Origin: Ruminococcus bicirculans (ex Wegman et al. 2014)
Lineage (GTDB): Bacteria > Bacillota > Clostridia > Oscillospirales > Oscillospiraceae
Direction of reading: 5' to 3'
Assembly (NCBI GenBank): GCA_963649145.1
Contig: CAVJGI010000002.1
Span: 4,105-68,104 of the forward strand
Length of the DNA: 64,000 nucleotides
Part shown: positions 2,340 to 27,002 of the stretch, one piece after another
Layout of the letters: every line of letters starts with the position of its first letter
Position numbering within the stretch: position 1 is the stretch's first letter
Made by a program: the position numbers and the translations under genes
Notes under the pieces: generated by a model
What the model was told of the DNA's origin: nothing
Databases searched by the model: none
Seen by the model: the letters and a program-made list of their open reading frames with translations, nothing else

Positions 2340-2385
2340 CTATTTTTCATTACGCGCGAGAAAAAATTTTATATGCAGCGCCTTC

Positions 2386-2913: not shown

Positions 2914-2927
2914 CCGTCAAGGTCCTC

Positions 2928-4139
2928 TCATTCGTAAAAAAACATCGCGTCCACAAAGCGCTCGTCGAAGTCCCGCGCACCGGAGAGCTCCAGATAGCGG
3001 CAGCGCGCCGCCGCGCGGCGGACACCCTCGCGCCCGCAGTCCGTCAGACAGAGCGCCGCGCCGAGCCCGGCACTGTTGCCGACGTGGTGCGTCTTTTCGC
3101 GCAGCGCCGGGGGCAGCAGCCCGATGGTGCAGGCGCTGCGCAGGTCCATGGAAGCACCGAAGCCACCGGCGAGCAGAACCGCGGAGACATCCCCATACCG
3201 CTTGCCGCTGCGCGCGAGCAGCGTCTCGATCCCGGCGCGAACCGCCGCCTTCGCGAGCTGGAGCTGCCGCAGGTCCTGCGCCGTGACGAACACGCGGTCG
3301 GTGAGGTCATAGCGCTCGCCGCGCAGCCTGCCTGTCTCGTCGAGCAGACCGTTTTCGAGCAGCGCTGCCGCGGCGTCGATGAGCCCGCTGCCGCAGAGGG
3401 TCTCGGCGGTGCCGTCGCCGATCACGCGGACCGTCAGGTTGCGGTCCACGGCGTTGATCGCGCCCGGCACGGCGCGGGAGCCGCAGGCGATCTCCGCCCC
3501 CTCAAACGCCGGACCCGCCGCCGCAGCGCAGCAGAGAAAGCCGTCCCGGTCGCCGAGCGCCATCTCGCCGTTTGTGCCGACGTCCAGAAACAGCACGGTC
3601 TCCGCGCTCCCGGCAGCGCCGCTCGCGACCAGCCCGGCGGTGATGTCGCCGCCGACATAGCCGGAGACGGCGGGACAGAGATAGAGCATGCAGTCCGCCG
3701 GAAGACCGGGCAGGAACTCCGCTGCCGCGCGTTCAAAACCGAAGTGGCTCAGCGGTGTAAACGGCGCTCTTCCGATGCCCGCCGGCGAGAGCCCGGCGAA
3801 AAGATGCTCCATCACGGTGTTCCCCGCGACCGCGGCGCGGCGGAGGCGGGAGAGGTCCGGGCAGAGCGCGCGCAGCATCGCGCCGAGCTGGTCCCGGACG
3901 GCGCGCGTGAGCGCTTCGAGTCCGCCGGGCGTTTCCGCGTAGCGGATGCGGCTGATGACGTCCGCGCCGTAAGCGCACTGGGCGTTCCGCTCGCCGCACC
4001 GGGCAATGCCGTGGAGCAGACCGTCGTTTAAGATCTCCTGCGCGGAGTGCCCCTGCTCGATCGCGGCGGGAACGAGCTCCTTGACGGCTTTGACCCGCCC
4101 CTTCTCCACTGCGTCTGAAACCTTGTCCAGAATCGTCAT
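2928..4139 (-). CDS. ASKHA-domain corrinoid activation (RACo-like) protein; truncated or chimeric, with a B12-binding cap-like N-terminus
   Basis: The C-terminal ~350 aa carry RACo-type motifs (YGADVISRI, LFLDVGTNGEMALG, LAGGFG). The first ~50 aa (ILDKVSDAVEKGRVKAVKELVPAAIEQGHSAQEILNDGLL) resemble the helical cap of corrinoid proteins. There is no 2Fe-2S domain and no first DxGTT motif. Confidence 0.6.
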   Translation of the reverse strand: MTILDKVSDAVEKGRVKAVKELVPAAIEQGHSAQEILNDGLLHGIARCGERNAQCAYGADVISRIRYAETPGGLEALTRAVRDQLGAMLRALCPDLSRLRRAAVAGNTVMEHLFAGLSPAGIGRAPFTPLSHFGFERAAAEFLPGLPADCMLYLCPAVSGYVGGDITAGLVASGAAGSAETVLFLDVGTNGEMALGDRDGFLCCAAAAGPAFEGAEIACGSRAVPGAINAVDRNLTVRVIGDGTAETLCGSGLIDAAAALLENGLLDETGRLRGERYDLTDRVFVTAQDLRQLQLAKAAVRAGIETLLARSGKRYGDVSAVLLAGGFGASMDLRSACTIGLLPPALREKTHHVGNSAGLGAALCLTDCGREGVRRAAARCRYLELSGARDFDERFVDAMFFYE

Positions 4140-5431
4140 AAGTTCTCTGTCCTCTCGCTTATTTTTTCGGTGTCGATGCGGCGCGAGCGCTTGCGGAAGC
4201 GGTCCGGCGAAACGCCCTCAAGCTCGCGGAACACCTTGCAGAAATAGCTCTGGTCGCTGAAGCCGACAAGCTGGCAGACCTCCGCCACGGAGACGGGACC
4301 GGAGAGCAGGAGCAGCTTGCTGCGCTCGATGCGGATGCGGTTTAAATACGCGCGGTAGGTGACGCCCGTCTCCTCGCGGAACACGCGGGAGAAATAAGTC
4401 GGGGAGTAGCCCGCGGCTGCTGCGGCGTCCTCCAGCGTGAGCGGTTGGGCGTAATTCGCGGAGAGAAACTCGATCGCTCGCTGCACCGCGTCGGAAAGTC
4501 CGCTGCTGCCGAGGTCGATGACGAGACGGAGAAAGTGGTTCATCGTGCGCGAGAGCCGCGCCGTGAGGTCCGACTGGGATTCCGCGAGGCGCAGGTGCTC
4601 GCGGCAGCGGTCGCTGAGCTCAAACACCTGCGCGCTGCCCGCTCCGGCGGCGATCGCTGCGCGGGAGATGATGACGAGCAGCTCCTGCACGCGCTGCATA
4701 ATGTCCGCCTCGCTGCGGATATAGAAGAAAATATAGCCGAGGAGCTGACCCAGCAGCTCGTTCGCGAGCGCGGAATCTCCGCGGGCGACCGCCTCGTAGA
4801 GCGCCTGCTCGCGCGCCATGGGGTAGCCCACGGCGCGAGCGCTGCGCTTGATGCCCGCAATGTAGCTTCCGATATAATTCTGCTGGTCGTTCTCACTCTG
4901 GCTGAGAAAGACCTCATGGCTGCTGTCGCTGACGACGACGGCGCTCGCGAAGAGCTGACCGGAGAGATAGTGCAGACGCTGGGGCGTCATCGCCGGGACG
5001 CGCTCAAGTCCGTTGCGGAGCCTTACCTCGATCGCCGCGGGCAGCGGGGAGGGGAGCGCCTCGCTTTCGAGCACGTCGTCCGTCTCCGTGATGCGCACGG
5101 GACCGGCGATGAGCGCCGCCGTGGTCCTGCCGCCCTCGATGACCGGTGCGGCGCAGAAGGCGAGCCCCAGCGGGCAGAAGTAAGTATAGCGCCCGCCGAA
5201 GCGCTCCGAGGCGAGCACGCCCTCGGCGTGGAGCGCGCGGCAGTGCAGCCCGGTGAGCTGTAGCGAGTCGCGCAGGCGCTCGCAGAAGGCGCAGTCCGCC
5301 CCCTGCGGCGACTGGGCATAGAGCGCCTTTCCGTTCCGCGTGAGCAGCAGGCAGCGCACGTCGAGCGAAAGGGAAAAGGAATCCACCGCGGCGCGCGCAA
5401 GGCGCACCTCGATCGTGCTGCGGCTCGGCAT
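4136..5431 (-). CDS. PocR-domain / AraC-family transcriptional regulator
   Basis: N-terminal PocR-like sensory region (YTYFCPLGLAFCAAPV) and a C-terminal AraC HTH (YSPTYFSRVFREETGVTYRAYLNRIRIERSKLLL). GGAGG RBS. Confidence 0.8.
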   Translation of the reverse strand: MPSRSTIEVRLARAAVDSFSLSLDVRCLLLTRNGKALYAQSPQGADCAFCERLRDSLQLTGLHCRALHAEGVLASERFGGRYTYFCPLGLAFCAAPVIEGGRTTAALIAGPVRITETDDVLESEALPSPLPAAIEVRLRNGLERVPAMTPQRLHYLSGQLFASAVVVSDSSHEVFLSQSENDQQNYIGSYIAGIKRSARAVGYPMAREQALYEAVARGDSALANELLGQLLGYIFFYIRSEADIMQRVQELLVIISRAAIAAGAGSAQVFELSDRCREHLRLAESQSDLTARLSRTMNHFLRLVIDLGSSGLSDAVQRAIEFLSANYAQPLTLEDAAAAAGYSPTYFSRVFREETGVTYRAYLNRIRIERSKLLLLSGPVSVAEVCQLVGFSDQSYFCKVFRELEGVSPDRFRKRSRRIDTEKISERTENL

Positions 5432-5591
5432 GGGGGCCTCCTTTCGAGAAGATAGAGCAAAAAAATCATAAATTCCGAAAATGTTCTATATCCTCCGCCG
5501 CGCCGCGTCAGTAAGAATGTGAAAAAAGATGCGAATAAGATCAAAGCCTGACGAATAGCATGGAACCATCCGGGATCAAGGGGTTGCTGCC

Positions 5592-6281
5592 ATGCTTTCG
5601 TCTTTTCTTGCGCTGTTTTTTTCGGGACTCTTTTTCTCGCTGCGGCTCGGACCGGGGAGCGGGTCGTTCCCGCGCCCGCTGCGCGCGGAGGAGGAGGCGC
5701 GCGCTGTGGAGGCGTGGGTCTCCCGCGGCGACATCGCCGCGCGCAACGAGCTTGTGGAGCACAATCTCCGCCTCGTGGCGCACATCGTGAAGAAATACTA
5801 CGCCCACGCCGCCGATCAGGAGGACCTCATCTCCATCGGCACCATCGGCCTGATCAAAGGCGTCAGCACCTACCGCCCAGATAAAAAGGTCCGGCTCGCG
5901 ACCTATGCGAGCAGGTGTATTGAAAATGAGATCCTCATGTACTTCCGCGCGCAGCGGAAGAGTGCGGGGGACCTCAGTCTTTCGGACAGCATTGAGAGCG
6001 ACGGGGAGGGGAATTCTCTCTCGCTCATCGACGTTCTGGCGGGGGAGGAGGACCTCTTTGAGAATGTCAGCACCGCGGAGCTGCGCGGGCAGGTGCGCGA
6101 GGCGGTCGGTCGCGTGCTGGATGCGCGCGAGGCGGAGGTCATCCGCCTGCGCTACGGGCTCGATTCCGCCGCGCCGTTGACCCAGCGCGAGACCGCCGAG
6201 CGCTGCGGCATCAGCCGGAGCTATATATCGCGCATCGAGAAAAAAGCGCTCGAAAAGCTCCGCAACGCGATCGAGGGCTGA
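5592..6281 (+). CDS. sigK: sporulation sigma factor K (pro-sigma-K), uninterrupted
   Basis: Hydrophobic pro-sequence followed by FPRPL. Also has EHNLRLVAHIVKKY, DLISIGTIGLIK, ATYASRCIENEILMYFR and ISRSYISRIEKKAL, which closely parallel B. subtilis SigK. Confidence 0.85.
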   Translation: MLSSFLALFFSGLFFSLRLGPGSGSFPRPLRAEEEARAVEAWVSRGDIAARNELVEHNLRLVAHIVKKYYAHAADQEDLISIGTIGLIKGVSTYRPDKKVRLATYASRCIENEILMYFRAQRKSAGDLSLSDSIESDGEGNSLSLIDVLAGEEDLFENVSTAELRGQVREAVGRVLDAREAEVIRLRYGLDSAAPLTQRETAERCGISRSYISRIEKKALEKLRNAIEG

Positions 6282-6296
6282 CGCGGCACGCGCCCC

Positions 6297-6325
6297 TTGC
6301 GGAAAGCGCAAAAACGGCGTATAAT
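6297..6325 (+). promoter_or_regulatory. sigma-A-type promoter upstream of the HAD gene
   Basis: TTGCGG, 17-nt spacer, TATAAT. Confidence 0.55.
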
Positions 6326-6359
6326 GATACAATACCAACGAAAAAGGAGAGGAGCATTT

Positions 6360-7532
6360 ATGGCAGGGGAGCGGTATATCAGAGAGCACAAGGAGGACCT
6401 TCCCGTCCTCGCGATCTGCTACGATTTCGACAAAACGCTGTCACCGGACGATATGCAGGCGCAGGGTTATATCCAGTCGGTGGGCTGCGATGTCCGGGAT
6501 TTCTGGAACGAGTCGAACGAACTGGCGGAACAGAACGATATGGACCAGAACCTCGCCTATATGCTCCTGATGAAAAAGCGCGCGGCGGGCAAGGTGCTCT
6601 TTACGCGCGAAAAGCTGGCGGCATACGGCGCGAGCGTCAGCCTGTTTCCGGGCGTGGAGGACTGGTTCGGACGCATCCGCGCTTACGGCGCGGCGCACGG
6701 CGTCATCGTGGAGCACTACATTATCTCCTCCGGCCTGAAGGAGATGATCGAGGGCACCGCCGTTGCGAAAGCCGGCGTGTTCAAGAAGATCTATGCCAGC
6801 AGCTTTTATTACGACGCCGACGGCGTGGCGGAGTGGCCGGCGCAGGTCGTGAACTACACGAACAAGACCCAGTTTCTCTTCCGCATCGAAAAGGGCGTTC
6901 TGGACATCAACGACCCCGGCGTGAACGACTCCTTCCCGCCGGATGAGCTGCGCGTCCCGTTCCGCAACATGGTCTATATCGGCGACAGCGACACGGATGT
7001 TCCCTGCATGAAGCTCGTGGACGCTTACGGCGGCTATTCCATCGGCGTTTACAGTGCGGAGACGAAGGACAAGGCGAAGGTCTACAAAATGATGCGCGAC
7101 GGTCGTATCCGCTATTTTGCCCCGGCGGATTATTCTGACGGCGCGGAGCTGGATACGCTGCTCAAGGCCATCATCGACCGCACGGCGCGCAACGAAGCGC
7201 TGGAGTCCCGGTATTTCGCCTGCCGCAAGGAACAGACGGAGTCCGACCGGAGCCGCAGCGACGAGGAGAAGAGAAAGGCCGCGCTTTTGCTGGAGCTGGA
7301 GAGCAGCGCCAGCTTCGCCGCCACGCACGCGGCGGTGGAAAAGCTGCGGCAGGTCGCGGCGTGGACCGCGGCGGAGCGCGAGCTGCTGTTCGCCGCCGCG
7401 CTTGCGAACAGTCAGGTCCGCTATATCCTCGCCGACCCGGACGTGAAGGCGTTTTTCACCGGGCTGCTGGCGGACGCCGGACCGCTCACAAAGGCGGCGC
7501 GGGAGGTGCAGGCGGCGATGGAGAAAACATAA
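6360..7532 (+). CDS. HAD-superfamily hydrolase with a ~100-aa helical C-terminal extension
   Basis: HAD motifs CYDFDKTL (DxDxT), IISSG and YIGDSDTDVPCM. The start was moved to the ATG at 6360, which follows the GGAGAGGAG RBS. Confidence 0.75.
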   Translation: MAGERYIREHKEDLPVLAICYDFDKTLSPDDMQAQGYIQSVGCDVRDFWNESNELAEQNDMDQNLAYMLLMKKRAAGKVLFTREKLAAYGASVSLFPGVEDWFGRIRAYGAAHGVIVEHYIISSGLKEMIEGTAVAKAGVFKKIYASSFYYDADGVAEWPAQVVNYTNKTQFLFRIEKGVLDINDPGVNDSFPPDELRVPFRNMVYIGDSDTDVPCMKLVDAYGGYSIGVYSAETKDKAKVYKMMRDGRIRYFAPADYSDGAELDTLLKAIIDRTARNEALESRYFACRKEQTESDRSRSDEEKRKAALLLELESSASFAATHAAVEKLRQVAAWTAAERELLFAAALANSQVRYILADPDVKAFFTGLLADAGPLTKAAREVQAAMEKT

Positions 7533-7559
7533 GGCCGGACGGGGGAGACAAAAAATATC

Positions 7560-7588
7560 TTGCGATACGCCGGATAATTTGCTACAAT
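7560..7588 (+). promoter_or_regulatory. sigma-A-type promoter upstream of the DegV gene
   Basis: TTGCGA, 17-nt spacer, TACAAT. Confidence 0.55.
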
Positions 7589-7641
7589 GAAGCCCGTGCC
7601 GCATCGCGGCAGAGCTTTTTTGAAACAGGAGCCTGCGCTTT

Positions 7642-8487
7642 ATGAATGTTAAGATCACATCCGACAGCACCTGCGACCTCTCGCCGGAGCTCATTGAAAA
7701 ATACGATATCTCCATCACACCGCTGACCGTCCACTGCGGGGAGTGCAGCGGCTCGGACGGCCTCGGCATCACGCCGGAGGACATTTACGAATATGTCGCG
7801 AAGAGCGGGAAGCTCCCGAAGACGAGCGCCGTCAACGTCTATGACTACGTGCAGGAGTTCCGCCGCTGGCGGGACGCCGGGATGACCGTCGTCCACTTCT
7901 GCATCAGCGCGGATTTTTCCGCCTGCTTCCAGAACGCGAATCTCGCTGCCGATGAGGTCGGCGGCGTGCTCGTCGTGGATTCCCGCAATCTTTCCAGCGG
8001 GCAGGGACTGCTCGTGCTCCGCGCCGCGGAGATGGCTGCGGCGGGCAGCAGCGCCGAGGAAATCTGGCAGGAATGCACCGAGCTTGCAAGCCGCGTGGAG
8101 GCGAGCTTCGTGGTCGACAGTCTCGACTATCTCTACAAAGGTGGCCGCTGCTCCGCGCTGAGCGCCTTCGGCGGCAACCTGCTGCGCCTGAAGCCCTGCA
8201 TCGAGGTGCGCGGCGGCAAGATGGTGCCGGGGAAAAAATACCGCGGCAGGATCGAGCATGTCATGCTCCAATACGTCGCCGAGCGCGTCAGCGCCCGCGG
8301 CGATATCGATTGGCGCCGCGCCTTCATCACCCACACCCGCTGCGCTCCGGAGGCGGTCGCCGCCGTCCGCGCAAAGCTGGAGGAGCTGGGTCACTTCGAG
8401 GAAATTCTGGACACCACCGCCGGCGCCACCGTAACGAGCCACTGCGGACCCAATACCCTCGGCGTGCTGTTTATCCGGAACAAATAA
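7642..8487 (+). CDS. DegV-family fatty-acid-binding protein
   Basis: Typical DegV N-terminus (KITSDSTCDLSPELIEKYDISITPLTV), typical length (281 aa) and YLYKGGR motif. Confidence 0.85.
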   Translation: MNVKITSDSTCDLSPELIEKYDISITPLTVHCGECSGSDGLGITPEDIYEYVAKSGKLPKTSAVNVYDYVQEFRRWRDAGMTVVHFCISADFSACFQNANLAADEVGGVLVVDSRNLSSGQGLLVLRAAEMAAAGSSAEEIWQECTELASRVEASFVVDSLDYLYKGGRCSALSAFGGNLLRLKPCIEVRGGKMVPGKKYRGRIEHVMLQYVAERVSARGDIDWRRAFITHTRCAPEAVAAVRAKLEELGHFEEILDTTAGATVTSHCGPNTLGVLFIRNK

Positions 8488-8495
8488 GGTTTTTC

Positions 8496-8528
8496 GCGCC
8501 GCCCTCCGGGGCGGCGCGCTTAATTTTT
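8496..8528 (+). terminator. intrinsic terminator after the DegV gene
   Basis: GCGCCGCCC-TCCG-GGGCGGCGC hairpin followed by a T-rich tail. Confidence 0.7.
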
Positions 8529-8555
8529 GACAAGAAACGCGATCCGTGGTAGAAT
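8527..8555 (+). promoter_or_regulatory. sigma-A-type promoter of the two-component/VanY cluster
   Basis: TTGACA, 17-nt spacer, TAGAAT, with a TG extension (TGGTAGAAT). Confidence 0.65.
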
Positions 8556-8618
8556 CATACAAAAATGATGCAACGCCGGGACATAATAAAACTCTGAAAA
8601 AAGAAGGTGGCGTTTGAA

Positions 8619-9272
8619 ATGATAAAAATTCTGGTCGTGGAGGACGAAAAGCCGATCAACGATCTGATCGAGATGAATCTGACCGAGGCGGGGTATGAGT
8701 GTACCTGCGTGTATGACGGCATCGCCGCCTGCGACGCGGTGGAGAACCAGCGCTTTGACCTTGTGCTGCTGGACATCATGCTCCCCGGCGCGGACGGATA
8801 TGAGGTGCTGGACTACATCAAGCCGCTGGAGATCCCCGTCATCTTCCTGACGGCGAAAGGCAGCACGGAGGACAAGGTGAAGGGCTTAAAGCTCGGCGCG
8901 GACGACTATCTTACGAAGCCGTTTGAGATCGTCGAGCTGCTCGCGCGCGTGGAGAGCATCCTGCGCCGCGCGGGGAAGACCCAGATGGAGCTCGTCGTCG
9001 GCGACGTGACGATCGACACGCGCTCGCGCGCCGTGCGCCGCGGGAATAAGGACGTGCAGCTGACGATGAAGGAATATGAGCTCCTCCTGCTCTTCGCCCG
9101 CAACCGCAACATCGCGCTGTTCCGCGAGACGCTCTATGAGCATGTCTGGGGCAACGACTATATGGGCGACTCCCGCACCGTGGACCTCCATGTGCAGCGT
9201 CTGCGCAAGAAGCTGCACTGGGAGGACAAGATCAAGGCAATTTACAAGGTAGGCTACCGACTGGAGGTCTGA
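8619..9272 (+). CDS. OmpR-family response regulator
   Basis: Receiver domain (ILVVEDE...DLVLLDIMLP) plus winged-helix output (LTMKEYELLLLFARN...VDLHVQRLRKKL). ATG at 8619 follows the GAAGGTGG RBS. Confidence 0.9.
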   Translation: MIKILVVEDEKPINDLIEMNLTEAGYECTCVYDGIAACDAVENQRFDLVLLDIMLPGADGYEVLDYIKPLEIPVIFLTAKGSTEDKVKGLKLGADDYLTKPFEIVELLARVESILRRAGKTQMELVVGDVTIDTRSRAVRRGNKDVQLTMKEYELLLLFARNRNIALFRETLYEHVWGNDYMGDSRTVDLHVQRLRKKLHWEDKIKAIYKVGYRLEV

Positions 9273-17659: not shown

Positions 17660-18034
17660 ATGGCAAGCAACAAGCTCCAGCGGACGAACGAGGATATCCG
17701 CTTCGCCCTCTCCCGGCTGCTCCCGCAGGTGAAGGACCCGCGCGTGCAGCAGGGGGAGCTGATGAGCATCACCCACGTGGACACGACAGGCGACCTGCGC
17801 TACTGCAAGGTCAGCGTCAGCTTCCTCGGCGAGGTGAACGAAAAGGAATTTAAAAAGGGCATCAAGTCCGCGTCGCCGTGGCTGCGGCGCGAGCTCGGCG
17901 CGGCGCTCAGCCTGCGCTACACGCCGGAGCTCATTTTTGAGCTGGACCACTCCATCGAGCACGGCGCTTATATCAACAGCCTGATCGAAAAGCTCGATAT
18001 CCCGAAGGAGGAGCCGCAGCATGACGACGAATGA
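17660..18034 (+). CDS. rbfA: ribosome-binding factor A
   Basis: R(T)NEDIRFALSRLL...VKDPRV...ITHVDTTGDLRYCKVSVS. ATG at 17660 follows AAAGGAG. Confidence 0.9.
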   Translation: MASNKLQRTNEDIRFALSRLLPQVKDPRVQQGELMSITHVDTTGDLRYCKVSVSFLGEVNEKEFKKGIKSASPWLRRELGAALSLRYTPELIFELDHSIEHGAYINSLIEKLDIPKEEPQHDDE

Positions 18035-18956
18035 GGCGGCGGCGTTGCTCCGCGCCCATGACGCCATTCAGCTCGTGACCCACACCCGCCCGGACGGGGA
18101 CACGCTCTGCTCCGCCGCGGCGCTCTGCTCCATGCTGCGCCGGATGGGGAAGCGCGCGTGGCTTTTCCCGAATCCGGAGATCACGGAGAAGTTTCAGCCG
18201 CTGACGGCGGCATTTCTCGCCGGGGGCGGCGAGACGGCGGCTTACACCGTCAGCGTCGACGTCGCAGGGACGGAGATGTTCTGCCCCGGCTTTTCCGGCG
18301 CGGTCGATCTCGCGATCGACCATCACCCGAAAAATCCCGGCTTCGCCGCCGCCACGCTCCTGCGCGGCGAGAAGGCGAGCACGGGCGAGATCATTTTAGA
18401 GCTCGCCGACGCGCTCGGCTGCGGCGTTACGCCGGAGGAGGCGACGCTGCTCTATATCGCGCTCAGCACGGACTGCGGCTGCTTCTGCTACGGCAACACC
18501 TGCGCGGACACCCACCGCGCCGCGGCGCGGCTGATGGACCTCGGCGCGAACCACCGCTGGGTCAATAAGCAGTTTTTCCGCTCGTTCAGCTTCCCGCGTC
18601 TGAAGCTGGAGGGCATGATCTTCGCCACGCTCCGCTCTTACCGCGAAAACCGGATCAACATCGCGGTCATCACGCTCGACATGATGCGCGAGAGCGGCGC
18701 GACGGAGGACGACTGCGACGATCTCGCCTCCCTCGCCGGGAAGGTGCGCGGCAACGTCGTGTCCATCACCGTGCGCGAGATCGCGCCGGGGCGCAGCAAG
18801 GCGTCCGTGCGCACGAACGAGCTGGTGGACGCCTCGGCGGTCTGCGCGCTCTTCGGCGGCGGCGGACACAAAATGGCATCCGGCTGCACGGTGGACCTGC
18901 CGCCCCAGACCCTCGCCGACCGTATGCTGGACGCCGTGAACGAGATCTGGAAATGA
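18021..18956 (+). CDS. DHH/DHHA1 phosphoesterase (NrnA-like oligoribonuclease / pAp phosphatase)
   Basis: HTRPDGDTLCSAAAL, DHH and GGGGHKMASG motifs. Confidence 0.85.
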   Translation: MTTNEAAALLRAHDAIQLVTHTRPDGDTLCSAAALCSMLRRMGKRAWLFPNPEITEKFQPLTAAFLAGGGETAAYTVSVDVAGTEMFCPGFSGAVDLAIDHHPKNPGFAAATLLRGEKASTGEIILELADALGCGVTPEEATLLYIALSTDCGCFCYGNTCADTHRAAARLMDLGANHRWVNKQFFRSFSFPRLKLEGMIFATLRSYRENRINIAVITLDMMRESGATEDDCDDLASLAGKVRGNVVSITVREIAPGRSKASVRTNELVDASAVCALFGGGGHKMASGCTVDLPPQTLADRMLDAVNEIWK

Positions 18957-19828
18957 ACGGCATTTTACTCATCGACAAGCCCGCCGGCTGGACGAGCATG
19001 GACGTCTGCGCCAAGCTGCGCGGCGCGCTGCACGAAAAGCGCGTGGGCCACTCCGGAACGCTCGACCCGATGGCGACCGGGCTGCTCGCCGTGTTTCTCG
19101 GCCGCGCCACGCGCGCGGTGGAGTTCGCTGAGGCGGCGGAGAAGGAATATCTTGCCGCCCTGCGCCTCGGCGTCACGACGGACACGCAGGACACGTCCGG
19201 AACTGTTCTGGAGCAGCGCGAAGCCGACGTCTCCGACGCGGCGCTGGACGCCGCGCTCGCGCGCTTTCGCGGCGAGATCGAGCAGCTGCCGCCCATGTAT
19301 TCGGCGATCAAGATCGGCGGGAAGAAGCTCTACGAGATCGCCCGCCGCGGCGGTGAGGTGGAGCGAAAGCCCCGCCGCGTCACGATCTATGAGCTCGATC
19401 GCCTCGGACGGGACGACGCGGGCGACATTCTGCTCCGCGTCCGCTGCTCCAAGGGCACCTACATCCGCGCGCTTTGCCACGATATCGGCGCCGCTCTCGG
19501 CTGCGGCGGCTGCATGAGCGCCCTGCGGCGCACCCGTGCGGGGGAGTTCACGCTCGCCGAAGCACACACGCTCGACGACGTGCTCGCCGCGGCGGAGGAA
19601 GGGCGCGCCGAGGCGCTGCTCCTCCCGGTGGACACGCTTTTCCGCGCTTACCCCGCACTGACGCTCACCGCCCCGCAGGAGCGTGCGCTGCGCTCCGGTG
19701 TGCGCTACACCTGCCCGCTGCCGGAGGGGGCCGTTTACCGGCTCTATGCCCCGGACGGCGCGTTTCTCGCGCTCGGCGAGGTGCGGGAGGGGAAAATGTG
19801 CTCCCGCAAGAATTTTTTTGAGAATTGA
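18953..19828 (+). CDS. truB: tRNA pseudouridine(55) synthase TruB
   Basis: GILLIDKPAGWTS, the catalytic-Asp motif HSGTLDPMATGLL, and PPMYSAIK. Confidence 0.95.
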   Translation: MNGILLIDKPAGWTSMDVCAKLRGALHEKRVGHSGTLDPMATGLLAVFLGRATRAVEFAEAAEKEYLAALRLGVTTDTQDTSGTVLEQREADVSDAALDAALARFRGEIEQLPPMYSAIKIGGKKLYEIARRGGEVERKPRRVTIYELDRLGRDDAGDILLRVRCSKGTYIRALCHDIGAALGCGGCMSALRRTRAGEFTLAEAHTLDDVLAAAEEGRAEALLLPVDTLFRAYPALTLTAPQERALRSGVRYTCPLPEGAVYRLYAPDGAFLALGEVREGKMCSRKNFFEN

Positions 19829-19840
19829 AGCTGGTTTTTT

Positions 19841-20737
19841 ATGGAACAAAGACCCAAAACCGTGCTCGCGCTCGGCTTTTTTGACGGCGTTCATATCGGA
19901 CACGCCGCGCTGCTGAACGCGGCGAAGGCGCGCGCCGCCGCGCTCGGTGCGGAGCCCGCGGTGCTGACTTTTGACCTCCACCCTGATATTTTCGTCAAAA
20001 AAACGCCCGTGCCGCTGCTCTGCTCGCCGGCGGACCGCGCCTATATCATCCGCCGTTTTTTCGGTATTGAACGGACCTGCTGCATCCACTTCAATGAGCA
20101 CACGATGCATATGCCGTGGCACGAGTTTCTGGACGGCGTCTGCGCGGAATATAACGCCGCCGGCTTCGTCGTCGGCTATGACTTCCGCTTTGGCGACCGC
20201 GGCGAGGGCGACGGCGAAAAGCTGGCGTCTTACTGCGCCGCGCGCGGTCTTGGCTGCGATATTATCCCCGCCGTCTCGCTGGACGGCGAGGTCGTGAGCT
20301 CCACGCGCATCCGCGCCGTTGTCGCCGCGGGGGAGATGGAGCACGCCGCGGCGCTGCTGGGGCATCCCCATCTGCTGACGGACAATGTCCGCAGCGGACT
20401 GCGCCTCGGCAGGCGGCTTGCGAGCCCGACCATCAACATGCGCTTTGAGCCCGGCGTGCTCATCCCGCGCCGCGGCGTTTATGCGACGCGCGTCGTCCTG
20501 CCGGACGGGGAGCACCCCGCCGTCACGAACATCGGCACGCGCCCGACCGTCGGCGGCGAAAACGTTACGGTCGAGAGCAACATCCTCCATTTCACCGGCG
20601 ACCTCTACGGAAAGCGCGTCTGCGTCGAGCTCGCGCACTTCCTGCGCGACGAGCGGAGGTTCGATTCCGTGGAAGCCCTCGGCGAGCAGATCCGCCGCGA
20701 CGCCCAGCGCGCCGGGGAGCTGCTGGAGCGCGGCTGA
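19841..20737 (+). CDS. ribF: bifunctional riboflavin kinase / FAD synthetase
   Basis: LGFFDGVHIGH, SSTRIR and PTINM...GVYATRV motifs. Confidence 0.93.
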   Translation: MEQRPKTVLALGFFDGVHIGHAALLNAAKARAAALGAEPAVLTFDLHPDIFVKKTPVPLLCSPADRAYIIRRFFGIERTCCIHFNEHTMHMPWHEFLDGVCAEYNAAGFVVGYDFRFGDRGEGDGEKLASYCAARGLGCDIIPAVSLDGEVVSSTRIRAVVAAGEMEHAAALLGHPHLLTDNVRSGLRLGRRLASPTINMRFEPGVLIPRRGVYATRVVLPDGEHPAVTNIGTRPTVGGENVTVESNILHFTGDLYGKRVCVELAHFLRDERRFDSVEALGEQIRRDAQRAGELLERG

Positions 20738-20744
20738 AAAAAAG

Positions 20745-20785
20745 AAAGGCGGACGCTTTCAAAAAAAGCGTCCGCCATTCTTTTC
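20745..20785. terminator. bidirectional terminator after ribF (left copy of a duplicated terminator arm)
   Basis: GGCGGACGC-loop-GCGTCCGCC with an A-run upstream and a T-run downstream. The 21 nt at 20738-20758 are repeated exactly at 21818-21838. Confidence 0.75.
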
Positions 20786-20793
20786 GGTTTCCG

Positions 20794-21741
20794 TCAGCTG
20801 TGGAAGGGACCGGGACCGGGCCATTTGCCGCTGCCGCCCATTTCGGCTTCGAGTTTTTCGAGCTGCTTCAGGAGGTTCATACGCACCGCCTCGTTCGGAA
20901 GGTCGGCGGCAAGGATCCCCATGCGGATCCCCTCGATGCTCAGCTCGCCCCGTCTGATCGCGTCCGCGGTCTCTTTGCCGAAGGTTAGCTCTTTGAAGCG
21001 TTCCTCCGGTGGCGTCATCTCGGTGATCTCCTCCGGTGTGTAGCCGCGGTTGCAGTACATCCGCGTCGTGTTGTGGAACGCGGTGAAAAGGTCGACAAAC
21101 ATTTTCATGGCGTTCTTGGACTTCATCCGGACGCCATACGCATCCAGAGCGTCGATGACCTCCTCCATCGCGGAGACCGTGACGTCGTTCACGATGCAAA
21201 GGAACTCGTAAAGAAGCGCGTTTGCGCTCACCTCGCTCAGACCGCCGCGCTCTGTCAGGAAGAGGAAAAGCCTGCGGCGCGCCGGGGTGTTCTCGCAGCA
21301 AAAGGGGTCGGCATATTCCAGAAAATCCTTTTTTTCCGGCACATAATAGGGCTTGCCCTGCTGAAGACTCTTTGTCTCGTAAATCAGCTCCCCGTCCTCG
21401 TCGAACAGCACATAGTTTATGATCTCGCGGTCAAGCGGCTTCGTGGGCTTTCCGTCGTCATAGAGCTCGTCATCGCCGAGGATGGAGTAGCACTCGCACT
21501 CATGCCGCGCGATCTCCGCAAAGGCGAGGAACTCCTCCTCCGTTACCAGCTTGGGGCTATAGGAGAAAACGATCTCCTTTGCCTTGCGCAGCGGGATGAT
21601 GCCGTAGAGATTTGCCATCGCGTTGAAATATTTGCGGAGGAGCCGCGAGGTCGTGTCCTTCAGCGGGATCTCCCGGTAAAGCGCGTTCAGCTGCCTGCGG
21701 GAATACTCCTGCGGGAATTCGTAATCTTTGTCCTTTGCCAT
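20794..21741 (-). CDS. hypothetical protein (orphan cassette gene), no recognisable domain
   Basis: Long ORF with its own TTGACT-17-TAGAAT promoter and GGAGGA RBS. The start was moved to the ATG at 21741 because the listed ATG at 21780 overlaps the -10 hexamer. GC looks lower (about 55-58%) than in the neighbours. Confidence 0.7.
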   Translation of the reverse strand: MAKDKDYEFPQEYSRRQLNALYREIPLKDTTSRLLRKYFNAMANLYGIIPLRKAKEIVFSYSPKLVTEEEFLAFAEIARHECECYSILGDDELYDDGKPTKPLDREIINYVLFDEDGELIYETKSLQQGKPYYVPEKKDFLEYADPFCCENTPARRRLFLFLTERGGLSEVSANALLYEFLCIVNDVTVSAMEEVIDALDAYGVRMKSKNAMKMFVDLFTAFHNTTRMYCNRGYTPEEITEMTPPEERFKELTFGKETADAIRRGELSIEGIRMGILAADLPNEAVRMNLLKQLEKLEAEMGGSGKWPGPGPFHS

Positions 21742-21778
21742 GTCGCTTCCTCCTCTGAATAATTGCGATCTCTTTGCC

Positions 21779-21807
21779 ATTCTAACGTGGATCGCGCTTC
21801 AAGTCAA
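21779..21807 (-). promoter_or_regulatory. sigma-A-type promoter of the orphan gene
   Basis: On the minus strand: TTGACT, 17-nt spacer, TAGAAT. Confidence 0.65.
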
Positions 21808-21824
21808 GCGGAACGGCAAAAAAG

Positions 21825-21857
21825 AAAGGCGGACGCTTACTTTGCGTTCGCCTTTTT
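21825..21857. terminator. bidirectional terminator (right copy), downstream of feoB on the minus strand
   Basis: GGCGGACGC-loop-GCGTTCGCC hairpin (one mismatch) with flanking A and T runs. Confidence 0.65.
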
Positions 21858-21994
21858 GAAATTTTTGCGCCCTTCTTTTTCTCTCAGGCGCGCGTTGGGC
21901 TCTCTTTTGTGTCTCGCCGGAGCCCCGGCTCGATCGTAGCTTAGCACAGATCGCGGTGGGGCGCAAGTGTAAAATCTGGGAAAGTGCCACGCTG

Positions 21995-24352
21995 TCAAAG
22001 CAGCGTCCCGACCGCGTGGACAGCTGCGGCGCAGAGCCACGCCAAGACGCACTGGAACACCACGACGAGCGCCGCCCAGCGTCCGCCCAGCTCGCGCCGG
22101 ATGGCGGCGACGGCGGCGACGCAGGGGGTGTAGAGCAGGCAGAACACGAGCAGCGCCGCGGCGGAAAGCGGCGTCAGGATGCTCGTCACCGCCGCCCCGC
22201 CCAGCAGGACCGTCAGCGTTGAGACAACGCTCTCCTTCGCCATAAAGCCCGCGGCAAGCGCCGTCACGATGCGCCAGTCGCCGAAGCCGAGCGGCGCGAA
22301 CACCGGGGAGAGGAAGCCCGCGATGACGGCGAGGATGGAGTCCTTCGCGTCCGAAACGACGTTTAAGCGGAAATCAAAGGTCTGGAGGAACCAGACGACG
22401 ATGGAGGCGAGGAAAATGACCGTGAACGCGCGCTGAAGAAAATCGCGCGCCTTGTCCCAGAGCAGATGGGCGACGTTGCCGAGCCCCGGCAGACGGTAAT
22501 TCGGCAGCTCCATCACGAAGGGGACCGCCTCGCCCTTGAAGAGCGTGTTCTTCGATGCGAGTGCGACGAGAACTCCGACTAAGATCCCCAGCAGATAGAG
22601 CGCGAGCATCACGAGCCCGCCGCGGCCGGGGAAGAACGCCGCCGTGAAAAACCCGTAGATCGGAAGCTTGGCGGTGCAGGACATAAACGGCGTCAGCACG
22701 ATCGTCATGCGACGGTCCCGCGCGCTCGGCAGCGTGCGGCTCGCCATGACGCCCGGCACCGTGCAGCCGAAGCCGATGAGCATCGGCACGATGCTGCGCC
22801 CGGAGAGTCCGAGGCGGCGCAGCAGCTTATCCATGACGAAGGCGATGCGCGCCATGTATCCGCTGTCTTCGAGCATAGAGAGGAAGAAAAACAGCACGAC
22901 GATGATCGGAATGAAGCTCAGCACGCTCCCGACGCCTCCGAAAATGCCGTCTATGACGAGCGAGTGGATGACGGGGTTGACGTTCGCCTCAGCAAGCGCG
23001 CCGTCCGTGAGCGCGGTCAGCGCGTCGATCCCGCGGGCGAGCAGGTTTTGCAGCGCCGCGCCGACAACGTTGAAGGTGAGGTAAAACACCAGCGCCATGA
23101 TCGCGATAAACGCCGGGATCGCGGTGTATTTCCCGGTCAGGACCCGGTCGATCCTGCGGCTGCGGATATGCTCGCGGCTCTCCCGCGGGCGGACGACCGT
23201 GCGCGAGCAGAGACGCCCGATAAAGTCAAAGCGCATGTCCGCGATCGCCGCGGCGCGGTCGAGCCCGCGCTCGGACTCCATCTGAACGACGATATGCTCC
23301 ACCATCTCGCGCTCGTTTTCGCTCAGCCGCAGCGCCTCCGTGACGAGCGCGTCACCCTCGACGAGCTTGCTCGCGGCGAAGCGCAGCGGCAGCCCCGCCG
23401 CAGCAGCGTGGTCTTCGATAAGGTGCATAATGCCGTGGAGACAGCGGTGGACAGCGCCGCCGTGGGCATTTTCGTCGCAGAAATCGACGCGCCCCGGCTT
23501 TTCCTGATAGCGGGCGATGTGGATCGCGTGGCGCACGAGCTCGTCGATGCCCTCGTCCCGCGCGGCGGAGATGGGCACGACCGGCACGCCGAGCATTGCC
23601 TCCATCTCGTTGATGCGGATCGTGCCGCCGTTGCCGCGCACCTCGTCCATCATGTTCAGCGCGAGCACGACCGGCGTGTCCAGCTCCATCAGCTGCATCG
23701 TGAGGTAGAGATTGCGCTCAATGTTTGTCGCGTCGGCGATGTTGATGATGCAGCGCGGCTTTTCCTCCAGAATGAACTGGCGCGAAACGATCTCCTCCGC
23801 CGAGTAAGGCGAGAGGGAATAAATGCCGGGCAGGTCCGTGACGAGCGTGTGCGCGTGTCCGCGGATGGCGCCGGATTTGCGGTCCACGGTGACGCCGGGG
23901 AAGTTGCCGACATGCTGGTTCGAGCCCGTGAGGGCATTGAAAAGCGTCGTCTTGCCGCAGTTCTGGTTTCCGGCGAGGGCGAAGGTCAGCAGCGCGTCCT
24001 CCGGCAGCGCCGTGCCTTCGGATTTTGTGTGATAGCGCCCCTCCTCGCCGAGACCGGGGTGCTCCGCGTCATGCGGGTGCTCGCGCTGAGGATAGTCGCG
24101 GTGCGCGCTCTGCGGGCGCTCCACGGCGCTCAGGGGCTCGATCCCGATCTCCGCCGCGTCTGCGAGGCGCAGCGTCAGCTCATAGCCGTGGATGCGAAGC
24201 TCCATCGGGTCGCCCATCGGCGCGAGCTTCATCAGCTTCACCCGCGCGCCGGGGATGACGCCCATATCGAGAAAATGCTGCCGCAGCGCACCCTCGCCGC
24301 CGACAGAAAGGATTTGCGCCACCTCGCCGGGGCGCAGCTGGTCCAAGGTCAT
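21995..24352 (-). CDS. feoB: ferrous iron transporter, FeoA-FeoB fusion
   Basis: N-terminal FeoA/SH3-like domain (GEVAQILSV...GVIPGARVKLMKLAPMGDPMEL). This is followed by the FeoB G-domain (ALAGNQNCGKTTLFNALTG) and a polytopic membrane domain. Confidence 0.93.
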   Translation of the reverse strand: MTLDQLRPGEVAQILSVGGEGALRQHFLDMGVIPGARVKLMKLAPMGDPMELRIHGYELTLRLADAAEIGIEPLSAVERPQSAHRDYPQREHPHDAEHPGLGEEGRYHTKSEGTALPEDALLTFALAGNQNCGKTTLFNALTGSNQHVGNFPGVTVDRKSGAIRGHAHTLVTDLPGIYSLSPYSAEEIVSRQFILEEKPRCIINIADATNIERNLYLTMQLMELDTPVVLALNMMDEVRGNGGTIRINEMEAMLGVPVVPISAARDEGIDELVRHAIHIARYQEKPGRVDFCDENAHGGAVHRCLHGIMHLIEDHAAAAGLPLRFAASKLVEGDALVTEALRLSENEREMVEHIVVQMESERGLDRAAAIADMRFDFIGRLCSRTVVRPRESREHIRSRRIDRVLTGKYTAIPAFIAIMALVFYLTFNVVGAALQNLLARGIDALTALTDGALAEANVNPVIHSLVIDGIFGGVGSVLSFIPIIVVLFFFLSMLEDSGYMARIAFVMDKLLRRLGLSGRSIVPMLIGFGCTVPGVMASRTLPSARDRRMTIVLTPFMSCTAKLPIYGFFTAAFFPGRGGLVMLALYLLGILVGVLVALASKNTLFKGEAVPFVMELPNYRLPGLGNVAHLLWDKARDFLQRAFTVIFLASIVVWFLQTFDFRLNVVSDAKDSILAVIAGFLSPVFAPLGFGDWRIVTALAAGFMAKESVVSTLTVLLGGAAVTSILTPLSAAALLVFCLLYTPCVAAVAAIRRELGGRWAALVVVFQCVLAWLCAAAVHAVGTLL

Positions 24353-24372
24353 GCGTGTTTCCTCTCTCTATG

Positions 24373-24390
24373 TGTTAGTTCTGACTAACA
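24373..24390. promoter_or_regulatory. perfect 7-4-7 palindrome TGTTAGT-TCTG-ACTAACA between the feoAB promoter and RBS (candidate metalloregulator operator)
   Basis: The inverted repeat was read directly. It lies downstream of the minus-strand TTGACA-17-TATCAT promoter at 24404-24432. Confidence 0.5.
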
Positions 24391-24391
24391 A

Positions 24392-24432
24392 AAAGCTGCC
24401 GCCATGATAAACCATGGCGGCAGCTTTGTCAA
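24392..24432 (-). terminator. terminator of the DHHW/MBOAT operon with the feoAB promoter nested inside it
   Basis: On the minus strand: AAAGCTGCCGCCATG-loop-CATGGCGGCAGCTTT followed by TTTG. The -35 TTGACA and -10 TATCAT overlap the hairpin. Confidence 0.6.
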
Positions 24433-24471
24433 CGGGAAACGCGCGGATTTTCAGCGGGGCGAGGGAGGGCG

Positions 24472-25590
24472 TCAATACCCCGCGAGGAACAGATTATTGT
24501 CCTCGGCGAAGTTTTTGACGCTGTAGCACACAAGCACGGCGTCGATGTCGTGCTCGGCGGCATAGGCTTTTATGCTGCTGCGGTAATAGCGAAGGTCCAG
24601 AATGTGGAGCTCGGAGAAGTGGGCGGTCAGGTAGGGGCTCAGCGTGTCCATATAGGAGTCGCGAAGGATGAGCAGGCGCGGCGCGTCGGTGTGCTCCGTC
24701 GCGACGGTCAGCAGCGGGGTGTTGCCGCCGTAGAAATAAGAATATTTGTCCTTCACGGCGAGGAAGCTCTCGTCATACATCTTGCCCGGAACGGCGGCGC
24801 CCTGCGGGTAGTTCGTGACGGTGACGCCCGTGTCCGGGACGAAGGTGCTGATGCTGTCCGGCTTCACCCACGAAAAGCCGGAGCTGGAATAGGTCGTGCC
24901 GTAAAACTCCTCGCTGACGACGGTCTCGCTGTAATCGCCGAGCGGTACGGCGTCGAAGCCCATCGCGTCGGCGAGGGCGGCATAGCCGTAATAAGCGCCG
25001 AGCGTGGTCCAGTGGTGGTCCGTGCGGAAGAAGATGGGCTCATCGCGGTGGGCGGCGAGCGCGGAGGCAATGTCCACAGTCTGCGCCGTGACGTAGTTAT
25101 AGGCGTAGTCGATGGTGTCCAGCTGGCTGTCGTTCGGCGCACCGTCCGGCAGCAGATCGCGGTCGATCTCCGCCGCGGAGGGGATGAGCGCGAAATAGAC
25201 GGGGACGTCCACATTCTCCGCGAGGGCGTTCACGGCGTCCAGATTAAAATCCAGATCGTCCTGCGCGGGCGCGGTGTAGGGCTCCAGCAGCGTTTCGCCC
25301 TCGCAGAGATAAATGCCGTTGTTCGCGTCCTTCCCGGCGGCGAGCTCCGCGCCGGCTTTCAGCGTCGTCCACCCGTCGCGCAGGGGGAACTGGTCGGTGA
25401 TGAAGTCCTCGTAAGCGGTCGTGAATTTGCCGGAGAAGAGGGCGGAGAAGGTGAATTTCGGCTCGGTCTGGAGCGCGCGGTTCTCGCGCTCGGAGAAGCT
25501 CTTTTTCGGGAGAACGAGCCCCAGCACGAACAGCACGCCGATAAAGACGAGAAACAGCACGGTCTGGACAATAGCGGCTTTCTTTTTCAT
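24472..25590 (-). CDS. DHHW-family protein (AlgX/PatB-like partner of the MBOAT O-acyltransferase)
   Basis: N-terminal TM anchor and the signature FRTDHHWTTLGAYYGY. It is directly downstream of the MBOAT gene. Confidence 0.8.
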   Translation of the reverse strand: MKKKAAIVQTVLFLVFIGVLFVLGLVLPKKSFSERENRALQTEPKFTFSALFSGKFTTAYEDFITDQFPLRDGWTTLKAGAELAAGKDANNGIYLCEGETLLEPYTAPAQDDLDFNLDAVNALAENVDVPVYFALIPSAAEIDRDLLPDGAPNDSQLDTIDYAYNYVTAQTVDIASALAAHRDEPIFFRTDHHWTTLGAYYGYAALADAMGFDAVPLGDYSETVVSEEFYGTTYSSSGFSWVKPDSISTFVPDTGVTVTNYPQGAAVPGKMYDESFLAVKDKYSYFYGGNTPLLTVATEHTDAPRLLILRDSYMDTLSPYLTAHFSELHILDLRYYRSSIKAYAAEHDIDAVLVCYSVKNFAEDNNLFLAGY

Positions 25591-25607
25591 TCCTGCTTGC
25601 CCTCCTT

Positions 25608-27002
25608 TCAGAAGCGGAAATAGAGAAACGGGTTATACGTCGCGTCCACGAGATACGCCGTGGAGAGAATGAGCACCGCGGCGATCATCACGGGCGTCAG
25701 CGCGGCGCGGACGCGCTCGCTGAGGCGGTCGTAGAGCCGCTTTCCGAGCGGCAGACAGGCGACGATCGCGACGACGAAGATCACGGCGTAGTTGCGCAGG
25801 TAAAAGAGGTCCTGCGCGCTCCAGAGCCCGGCTCCGCCGCCGAACATCGCGCGGTAATAGCCGAAGGCGGCGCTCATGCTCGGCAGGTCGAACATGACCC
25901 AGCCGCAGACGGCGACGACAAGGGCGTAGACCGTCGCGAGGACGGGGACTTTTTTGAGCGGCTTTAAGAGGAACAGCTTTTCCAGCATCAGGAACAGCGC
26001 GTAATAAAGCCCCCAGCAGAGGAAGGTCCAGTTCGCGCCGTGCCAGAAGCCTGTGAGCGCCCAGACGATCAGAATGTTCAGCATTTGCCGCGCCATCCCC
26101 TTGCGGTTGCCGCCGAGGGGAATATAAACATAGTCGCGGAACCATGTGCCGAGACTGATATGCCAGCGCCGCCAGAATTCCGTTACGGAGCGGGAGATAT
26201 AGGGGTAATCGAAGTTTTCAAGGAACTCAAAGCCCAGCATCCTGCCGAGGCCGATCGCCATGTCGGAGTAGCCGGAGAAGTCAAAGTAAATTTGCAGCGA
26301 GAAGGCGAGGATGCCCATCCAAGAGCCCAGCACGGTCAGCTCCGCGCCGGAGGCGGCGGAGTAAACGTCCCAGAGCGCGCCGATGTTGTTCGCGATGAGC
26401 ACCTTTTTGCCGAGACCGACAATGAAGCGCCGCACGCCGGAGGCGAACTGGTCCACGCTGTTCGCGCGGAAGCCGAGCTGGCCGGCGACATCTTTATAGC
26501 GCACGATGGGACCGGCGATGAGCTGGGGGAAGAGCGCCACAAAGGTGCCGAAGGAGATGAAGCTGCGCTGAAGCTCCGCGTCGCCGCGGTAAACGTCGAT
26601 GGGGTAGCTCATCGTCTGGAAGGTGTAGAACGAAATGCCGATCGGCAGCGTCAGCCCAAGCGTTGCGATATGGACGCCGGGAATGCGGCTGAGCGTTGCG
26701 GCGAAGAGGTCGTAATACTTGAAAAAGCCGAGCAGCGCGAGGTTCACCACAACGTCCGCCGTGAGCCACGCCTTCGCGCGGCGGCGGTCGGTGTGCTTAT
26801 ACTTCTCCACGAGGAAGCCCGCGGCGAAGTTGATCGCCATGGAAAACACCATCAGCAGCACATAGACCGGCTCGCCCCAGCCGTAAAACACGAGGTTCAC
26901 GGCAAAGAGCCAGACGTTGCGCCAGCGTGTCGGGACAAAATAATAGACCGCCAGCACGACCGGCAGGTATTGGAACATGAAAAGCAGGCTGGAAAAGACC
27001 AT
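25608..27002 (-). CDS. MBOAT-family membrane O-acyltransferase (AlgI/DltB-like)
   Basis: Polytopic protein. FWRRWHISLGTWFRDYVYIPLGGNR contains the conserved MBOAT His. Confidence 0.88.
   Translation of the reverse strand: MVFSSLLFMFQYLPVVLAVYYFVPTRWRNVWLFAVNLVFYGWGEPVYVLLMVFSMAINFAAGFLVEKYKHTDRRRAKAWLTADVVVNLALLGFFKYYDLFAATLSRIPGVHIATLGLTLPIGISFYTFQTMSYPIDVYRGDAELQRSFISFGTFVALFPQLIAGPIVRYKDVAGQLGFRANSVDQFASGVRRFIVGLGKKVLIANNIGALWDVYSAASGAELTVLGSWMGILAFSLQIYFDFSGYSDMAIGLGRMLGFEFLENFDYPYISRSVTEFWRRWHISLGTWFRDYVYIPLGGNRKGMARQMLNILIVWALTGFWHGANWTFLCWGLYYALFLMLEKLFLLKPLKKVPVLATVYALVVAVCGWVMFDLPSMSAAFGYYRAMFGGGAGLWSAQDLFYLRNYAVIFVVAIVACLPLGKRLYDRLSERVRAALTPVMIAAVLILSTAYLVDATYNPFLYFRF

Follow-up and report, generated by a model that had tools for sequence, protein, structure and literature searches.

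Among the described systems that come close to the locus that we report here are phage morons and elements that target hairpins. Phage morons, independent units of promoter, gene and terminator placed between the genes of a prophage, are single genes with their own promoter and terminator that stand between genes adjacent in a relative, with an atypical composition and presence/absence polymorphism. A second group targets hairpins or terminators and includes class C group II introns as well as families of insertion sequences (IS) in repetitive extragenic palindromic (REP) sequences or in attC. In this study we analyzed a stretch of 64,000 nucleotides (nt) from Ruminococcus bicirculans (contig CAVJGI010000002.1, positions 4,105 to 68,104, hereafter the window), in which a gene for a protein of 315 amino acids (aa), P0001, lies between the convergent core genes ribF and feoB and is flanked by two copies of a terminator hairpin. 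This cassette shares with morons the single gene, the putative promoter and terminator of its own, the place between two genes that are neighbors in a relative, the atypical composition and the presence/absence polymorphism. It differs from them in its site, which is chromosomal, between core genes and without phage genes nearby, and in belonging to a family that is almost absent from the phage collection. As with the hairpin-targeting elements, the insertion point is a terminator stem-loop. In contrast to them the insert is single copy and has no reverse transcriptase, transposase or ribozyme, and the whole hairpin is duplicated, which is not known of class C group II introns or the REP and attC IS families. 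We think that the cassette is probably a horizontally acquired single-gene unit of ∼1.04 kb in the shared terminator of ribF and feoB, and a derivative of a family of mobile-element cargo genes.

Evidence for this comes from a congener, G006, whose RibF is 95% identical at the aa level (as is that of another congener, G002) and whose flanking sequences are ∼93% identical at the nt level. In G006 ribF and feoB are parted by a single terminator without any gene, and the order of the neighbors (truB, ribF, feoAB, and DHHW and MBOAT family genes) is the same as in the window. Aligned with blastn to the G006 locus (L098), window positions 18000-20779 correspond to 2041-4819 and window positions 21818-25994 to 4777-8960. 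Both blocks overlap on 43 nt of G006 (4777-4819), and these 43 nt are its single terminator, AAAAAAGAAAGGCGGACGC-TTTTAGAAAAAA-GCGTTCGCC-TTTT. Since the two flanks overlap on one terminator, the window has ∼1,038 nt extra and carries this terminator in duplicate. A first interpretation made without database searches (the sequence-only reading) had named as its counter-case that every relative would have a housekeeping ortholog here; this candidate was rejected, as the site is empty in G006. The comparison of ribF-feoB synteny that it had proposed also showed that the gap is variable in other congeners. In G003 (L099 3320-4310) two small CotF-like open reading frames (ORFs) of 82 and 57 aa take the place of the cassette, together with a gene for a 55-aa FeoB-associated Cys-rich membrane peptide. 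The gene after ribF in both G001 and G004 codes for a large surface protein and is not feoB, and in G002 the assembly ends inside the terminator, with a PsiE-like gene abutting feoB. The 315-aa protein itself was not found in the six congeners searched (four of them only 58-86% complete) or in 18 further genomes of the same family, save three weak matches of 28-31% identity.

The exact repeat of 21 nt noted in the sequence-only reading, AAAAAAGAAAGGCGGACGCTT, is indeed present at 20738-20758 and 21818-21838, and no third copy was found in the 2.23-Mb genome with up to 2 mismatches allowed. Each copy forms the 5' arm of a G+C-rich hairpin flanked by A and T tracts. In the left hairpin (stem 20748-20776) the 5' arm GGCGGACGC (20748-20756) pairs with the 3' arm GCGTCCGCC (20768-20776), whereas in the right hairpin (stem 21828-21852) the same 5' arm (21828-21836) pairs with a different 3' arm, GCGTTCGCC (21844-21852), as had been claimed. 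The left hairpin is an inverted repeat with 20-nt arms that are 95% complementary. Its RNA folds reach -28.9 and -31.2 kcal/mol and those of the right copy -26.3 and -19.7 kcal/mol, all four being stable against shuffled sequences with z-scores between -4.1 and -6.8. In a terminator scan the left hairpin was called on either strand but the right one on the + strand only, so that both of the claimed terminator hairpins are found. What had been described as a duplicated arm is a duplication, but the unit is the whole hairpin of ∼40 nt and not the 21-nt arm alone. Compared with G006, to whose single terminator it aligns by way of its 3' arm, the left copy has kept the long loop of the ancestral type and differs by one change in the 3' arm that makes the stem perfect; the right copy is identical in the A-tract, both arms and the downstream flank, and only its loop differs, being short.

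Has the segment been inserted in the window lineage or deleted in G006? The gene might be ancestral to the species group and might have been lost from G006 through recombination between the terminator copies, the empty site then being a deletion scar. Direct repeats of 21-40 nt around 1 kb would be a substrate for such a precise deletion, the gene is fixed in the species, and both its GC content at third codon positions (GC3, 0.79), which resembles that of the host, and its long branch in the family tree would fit long residence. However, a crossover in the 21-nt arm would keep the short loop, while G006 has the long, left-like loop combined with the 3' arm of the right copy. Moreover, the further-diverged G003 has unrelated small genes at the site, G001 and G004 are without feoB there, and the family was not found in the six congeners searched, four of them only 58-86% complete. 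We consider a loss in G006 unlikely and infer an insertion.

The insertion would have left two complete terminator hairpins of ∼40 nt. Transcription of ribF on the + strand and of the 315-aa gene on the - strand would both end at the left copy, that of feoB on the - strand still at the right copy, so that three transcription units could coexist without read-through, as far as sequence alone can indicate. The join was most likely made in one of two ways, which we do not rank. A staggered break spanning the hairpin with subsequent fill-in would explain the exact match of the right copy to the chromosomal A-tract and arm. Alternatively, recombination of a circle carrying the same hairpin (Campbell-type) would explain the hybrid loops and the perfect left stem. 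A stronger version of the latter would make the cassette a site-specific mobile unit, whose circular form with one copy of the hairpin recombines with the terminator on the chromosome in the Campbell manner, catalyzed in trans, and gives hybrid hairpins on the left and right. Such hybrids can be seen in the left copy, where a loop of the ancestral type is followed by a perfect new 3' arm and then by insert-specific sequence, and in the right copy, where a differing short loop precedes the ancestral 3' arm; in addition, the two insert ends are inverted repeats of each other over 25 nt, with 88% complementarity. Nevertheless, neither the insert nor its immediate surroundings hold a recombinase, the cassette is single copy in the genome, direct repeats of at least 12 nt do not flank any of 26 other family loci, and the right A-tract and arm equal the G006 chromosome over 19 nt, as expected for a target duplication but not for an element of independent origin. 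A dedicated mobile unit is therefore very unlikely in our view. The absence of flanking repeats at the 26 loci means that the terminator duplication is specific to the window event. Two further candidates were rejected. A transposon (an IS or a miniature inverted-repeat transposable element) does not agree with a cassette and a repeat that occur at a single place, with P0001, the only ORF with homologs, being without a transposase signature, or with a duplication of ∼40 nt, which far exceeds usual target duplications. For an off-target insertion by a CRISPR integrase the insert of 1 kb is far too long.

The minus-strand gene, the TTGACT-17-TAGAAT promoter and the ribosome-binding site (given as GGAGGA) of the sequence-only reading were all recovered (Table 1). 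The promoter scan returned 2 promoter-like sites against 0.5 expected. The predicted promoter lies within the inserted segment and begins ∼10 nt past the right terminator, and only 17 nt separate the stop codon of the gene from the left one. With its promoter match and stable hairpins with T-tracts the cassette has the appearance of a single-gene unit, as judged by consensus and fold energies. Apart from the ribosome-binding site, the region upstream of the gene showed no similarity to other family members, and no tRNA or Rfam family above chance was found. The 3' tail of feoB, which runs from the stop codon to the right terminator, is ancestral and outside the insert. The lower GC content that had been claimed for the gene was borne out (0.577 compared to 0.66 for ribF and feoB, or about the 5th percentile of long ORFs). 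As its GC3 of 0.79 is close to the genome mean of 0.78, the low GC sits in codon positions 1 and 2. On the left side ribF is the final gene of an rbfA-nrnA-truB-ribF run.

Table 1. Coordinates of the cassette, its terminators and the flanking core genes in the window
Feature	Position	Strand	Composition or basis
Left duplicated bidirectional terminator copy	20738..20784	.	A-tract, stem, loop TTTCAAAAAAA
Right duplicated terminator copy	21818..21857	.	A-tract, stem, short loop TTACTTT
Segment lacking at the empty site of congener G006, ∼1,038 nt	20780..21817	-	Gene, leader and promoter; blastn, alignment
315-aa gene P0001	20794..21741	-	ORF translation
Putative ribosome-binding site AGGAGGA	21748..21754	-	6 nt before ATG at 21741; read from sequence
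Putative sigma-70-like promoter TTGACT-17-TAGAAT	21779..21807	-	10/12 consensus match, scan
ribF (FAD synthetase/riboflavin kinase), left core flank	19841..20737	+	Pfam FAD_syn 6.8e-36, Flavokinase 8.1e-36
feoB 3' tail, stop codon to terminator	21858..21994	-	Collinear with G006
Fused feoA-feoB ferrous iron transporter, right core flank	21995..24352	-	Pfam FeoA, FeoB_N, FeoB_Cyto, Gate, FeoB_C

The protein had been called an orphan in which no domain could be recognized. The second part of this description holds for Pfam, PHROGs and NCBIfam, where nothing significant was found for P0001, and for PADLOC (0 families at E ≤1, for which reason a known defence gene was rejected). The first part does not, since the protein belongs to a large family. 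We found 510 relatives at E ≤1e-3 in the collection clustered at 90% (best non-self value 8.5e-108) and 1,055 representatives at 50% clustering, 422 of them below 1e-10, mostly from gut Oscillospiraceae. Aside from a sister-strain variant (98%), the nearest relatives are 57-61% identical. One of them, WP_329958978.1 from Vescimonas fastidiosa (57.8% identical), bears the NCBI name 'SEC-C metal-binding domain-containing protein'; the core of ∼290 aa is homologous over its full length, with E values from 6e-95 to 1e-108, and the most conserved blocks common to the window protein and the SEC-C family are YREIPLKD, RKYFNAMANLYG, ARHE and CNRGYTP. A typical relative has ∼329 aa and ends in a linker followed by the SEC-C motif with four cysteines (Cys4; PF02810). 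A flexible linker with the end motif CPCGSGKKYKxCC is what most family members share with the metal-binding domains of SecA, YecA and YchJ, while the rest of the protein is unrelated to these. In E. coli SecA the Cys4 tail binds a metal, zinc or iron, and makes contact with both SecB and ribosomes (bioRxiv 10.1101/613315), and YchJ, which carries such motifs, has been reported to be a redox-sensing transcription factor (PMC13377102). The window protein differs from the SEC-C family in having no Cys4 tail: of the motif GSGK alone is retained, the tail GGSGKWPGPGPFHS is free of cysteine, and PF02810 did not match in the Pfam scan of P0001. Reading the sequence by eye past the stop codon, we saw no remnants of the motif in other frames. 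Loss of the SEC-C motif has occurred independently in another subgroup of 315 aa. Among 84 diverse relatives PF02810 was present in 71 and an N-terminal PRiA4_ORF3 domain in 23, with DUF7309 and DUF6930 also in three. All of these lie outside the core of ∼290 aa, for which the scan gave no Pfam model.

Sequence-profile searches of the PDB matched the SEC-C tail only, in addition to 2I1S (PRiA4_ORF3) for the N-terminal extension of longer relatives. The structure prediction and Foldseek search that had been proposed as a check gave a confident AlphaFold2 model (predicted local distance difference test, pLDDT, 86.8; predicted template modeling score, pTM, 0.78), for which nothing significant was found (best E 0.28 in PDB and 0.056 in BFVD). 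The N-terminal 135 residues modeled alone reached a pLDDT of 89.7, again with nothing significant in Foldseek (best E 0.48). Weak matches of this domain are enriched in winged-helix proteins, which is a hint only, and the model combines this weakly winged-helix-like N-terminal domain with an all-helical C-terminal domain. Only Y46 and G233 are invariant across the 84 relatives. Residues that come close to invariance are P, Y, A, F, K, L, E and G, and a conserved constellation of H, D, C and S was not seen. That the near-invariant residues are mostly structural argues against an enzyme. It might be possible that the 315-aa protein is a soluble, non-enzymatic binding or regulatory protein, a tentative and rather doubtful assignment drawn from alignment and model. 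In the literature we found nothing on the function of PF07929, MM3350, DUF6930, DUF7309, UPF0158 or SEC-C with immunity proteins.

Where do the relatives live? We inspected the contexts of family members at 69 loci from species-representative genomes and found two kinds of module. The first holds serine recombinases, an XRE and ImmA/IrrE pair, a 101-aa or 274-aa HExxH protein, the family member and UPF0158, followed by several small genes and then YjbR and a Y-family polymerase. The second, which is typical of integrative conjugative elements, consists of RepA_N/DUF6017, a radical-SAM-like protein, the family member, UPF0158 and a TrbL/VirB6-like membrane protein. A UPF0158 gene or its remnant stands directly downstream of the family member at 25 of the 69 loci. 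In contrast to these genes inside mobile-element operons, the window gene is monocistronic with its own putative promoter and is not followed by UPF0158; neither UPF0158 nor any other of the usual neighbors of the family was found anywhere in the genome of the window. The window copy would act, if at all, without the UPF0158 partner and the metal-binding tail. As to the phage or defence contexts for which the homologs were to be checked, mobile-element operons are what we found; the phage collection gave one weak match in 50,697 records, and in the plasmid collection there was one match, on an 861-kb replicon. The name 'moron' given in the sequence-only reading, a term for prophages, could not be kept, there being no phage genes nearby, while the inserted cassette at the shared terminator of a convergent core pair is supported by the empty site of G006.

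Identical family proteins occur in different genera, Lawsonibacter, Angelakisella and Avoscillospira, and near-identical ones in two families, Oscillospiraceae and Butyricicoccaceae. The proteins that are identical or 0.003 substitutions per site apart (L026, L027 and L062; L029, L061 and L030) come from these three genera, Flavonifractor and Agathobaculum. Such identity across genera and families shows recent transfer and an element that is currently spreading. The family was also seen in bins labeled Bacteroidota, Spirochaetota and Actinomycetota, probably through mis-binning. Decayed copies are frequent, with frameshifts, truncations and internal deletions in L052, L068, L070, L072 and L074. 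Examples are a frameshifted copy (L052 6001-6998), an N-terminal fragment of 101 residues adjoining a UPF0158 gene (L070 5397-6032), and a 73-aa mini-ORF in which the first 33 residues are joined to the SEC-C tail (L074 3820-4041).

A stem branch of 0.73 substitutions per site leads in the family tree to the window protein with its sister variant. The two are together sister to the clade accompanied by UPF0158, the window protein being inside the starred clade of 18 rows. The GC3 of the relatives is 0.59-0.68, compared to 0.79 for the window gene. Host-like GC3 and the long branch mean that the gene did not come recently from a low-GC donor or from the sampled mobile elements; either it has resided for long in a high-GC lineage or it came from an unsampled high-GC donor. 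Members of the family are cargo genes in an operon behind the XRE/ImmA pair, often with UPF0158 after them and with the Cys4 tail at their end, and the window copy probably derives from such a gene. It has shed both tail and partner, left the mobile-element surroundings, diverged by ∼40% and gained the host-like GC3.

Within the species we compared 10 contigs from NCBI, ENA and Logan, found through two RibF variants and the protein itself. The gene of 315 codons is intact in all of them. Its four alleles fall into two groups of haplotypes, and of the 16 polymorphic sites 9 are synonymous and 7 non-synonymous, with a ratio of non-synonymous to synonymous polymorphism (pN/pS) of ∼0.22. The corresponding pairwise ratio is 0.24 for the 315-aa gene, as against 0.10 for ribF and 0.065 for feoB. 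Intact frames in all ten contigs and a pN/pS of this size indicate, on small counts, fixation in the species with mild purifying selection on the gene. The -35 box and the spacer are common to both haplotypes, while the -10 box is TAGAAT in the window type and TAAACT in the second, and the putative ribosome-binding site AGGAGGA of the window type is replaced by a weaker AGAGGT. The -10 box and the leader of ∼40 nt (window 21742-21784, L075 5960-6000) differ at ∼17 positions, compared to a coding sequence that is 98.7% identical, which might be due to the exchange of a segment or to rapid divergence of the regulatory sequence.

Could the gene be a decaying, functionless relic of a mobile-element operon that has lost its tail and partner and simply happens to be intact still? 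The lost SEC-C motif and UPF0158 partner, the frequent decay of the family elsewhere and a pN/pS that is 2-4 times that of the flanking genes would be expected of a relic. Yet the frame is open in every contig across two diverged haplotypes, pN/pS is well below 1, the promoter -35 box and spacer are conserved, the AlphaFold2 model is confident, and ∼0.7 substitutions per site have accumulated on the stem without a stop codon. We give a mere relic a low probability.

Some strains of the species, and G002 as well, have 612 nt (L075 5203-5814) in place of 65 nt of the feoB tail (21930-21994), and no similarity was found between the two segments. The replacement carries, antisense to feoB, a gene with its own terminator for a PsiE-like membrane protein of 157 aa, whose match to Pfam PsiE (E 2e-4) falls narrowly below the cut-off, and its presence is polymorphic even among contigs with identical RibF. 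As the presence of this PsiE-like segment varies, the ribF-feoB gap is a hotspot of single-gene gain and loss. One might go further and see in the cassette an example of an unrecognized kind of single-gene movement, in which small circular or linear units are captured specifically at intrinsic-terminator hairpins by a host or trans-acting enzyme, but we regard this as highly improbable. If it were true, duplication of the whole hairpin would leave a terminator to each of the neighboring transcription units, convergent terminators would serve as preferred landing pads of low cost, and the gap would be a hotspot of this process, with the 315-aa gene, the PsiE-like gene in some strains and the CotF-like genes in another species.

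Other repeats were seen in the same genome. A hairpin repeat of ∼33 nt, AAAGGCCTCCCTGTGCAAGGGAGGCTGTC, flanks an ORF of ∼120-130 aa on two contigs (C10 35523/36079 and C43 24/620). By eye we take this ORF to be a DUF559/Vsr-like endonuclease, and the whole looks like a small repeated element. Long exact repeats in intergenic hairpins occur on C17 (12044/17236), C25 (17730/21823) and C43 (8052/11689), among them a repeat of 66 nt whose copies stand 5.2 kb apart on the two sides of an ABC-transporter cluster and a 40-nt terminator-like repeat flanking two long ORFs, presumably hisS and aspS as read by eye. C14 carries a CRISPR-like array at ∼24470-26460 with two variants of its repeat (GTCGCGCCCCGCAAGGGGCGCGTG...). 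In the window itself a perfect hairpin, AAACCGGCTCCCGAACGGGAGCCGGTTTTT, recurs as an exact direct repeat of 30 nt at 47449-47478 and 47712-47741, 263 nt apart.

Several points weigh against the proposed acquisition of the cassette. The direction of the event is read from one genome with an empty site together with composition and distribution, and a host-like GC3 would also fit an older resident gene. Among 5.8 billion proteins there was no donor and no intermediate of 61-98% identity. The right loop TTACTTT departs from the loop of ancestral type, TTTTAGAAAAAA, and a single change is present in the left 3' arm, so that a simple duplication needs later changes. The signal of selection is based on 16 polymorphic sites, promoter and terminator activity is deduced from consensus matches and fold energies, and all Foldseek matches are non-significant (E ≥0.056).

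In conclusion, the kind of event is already known: the cassette is a chromosomal single-gene islet and a case of ordinary gene gain, although the family is unstudied. Neither the single-gene gain nor the finding on the family overturns current understanding. As an example of single-gene gain the locus is clean, with an empty site, exact junctions and a duplicated terminator, and it suggests how a foreign gene may settle between convergent core genes and leave termination undisturbed. The SEC-C family, which exceeds 1,000 clusters at 50% identity and has a core without a Pfam model or a structural relative in PDB or BFVD, travels on mobile elements of human-gut Clostridia, often with UPF0158, and both are candidates for a mobile-element function.

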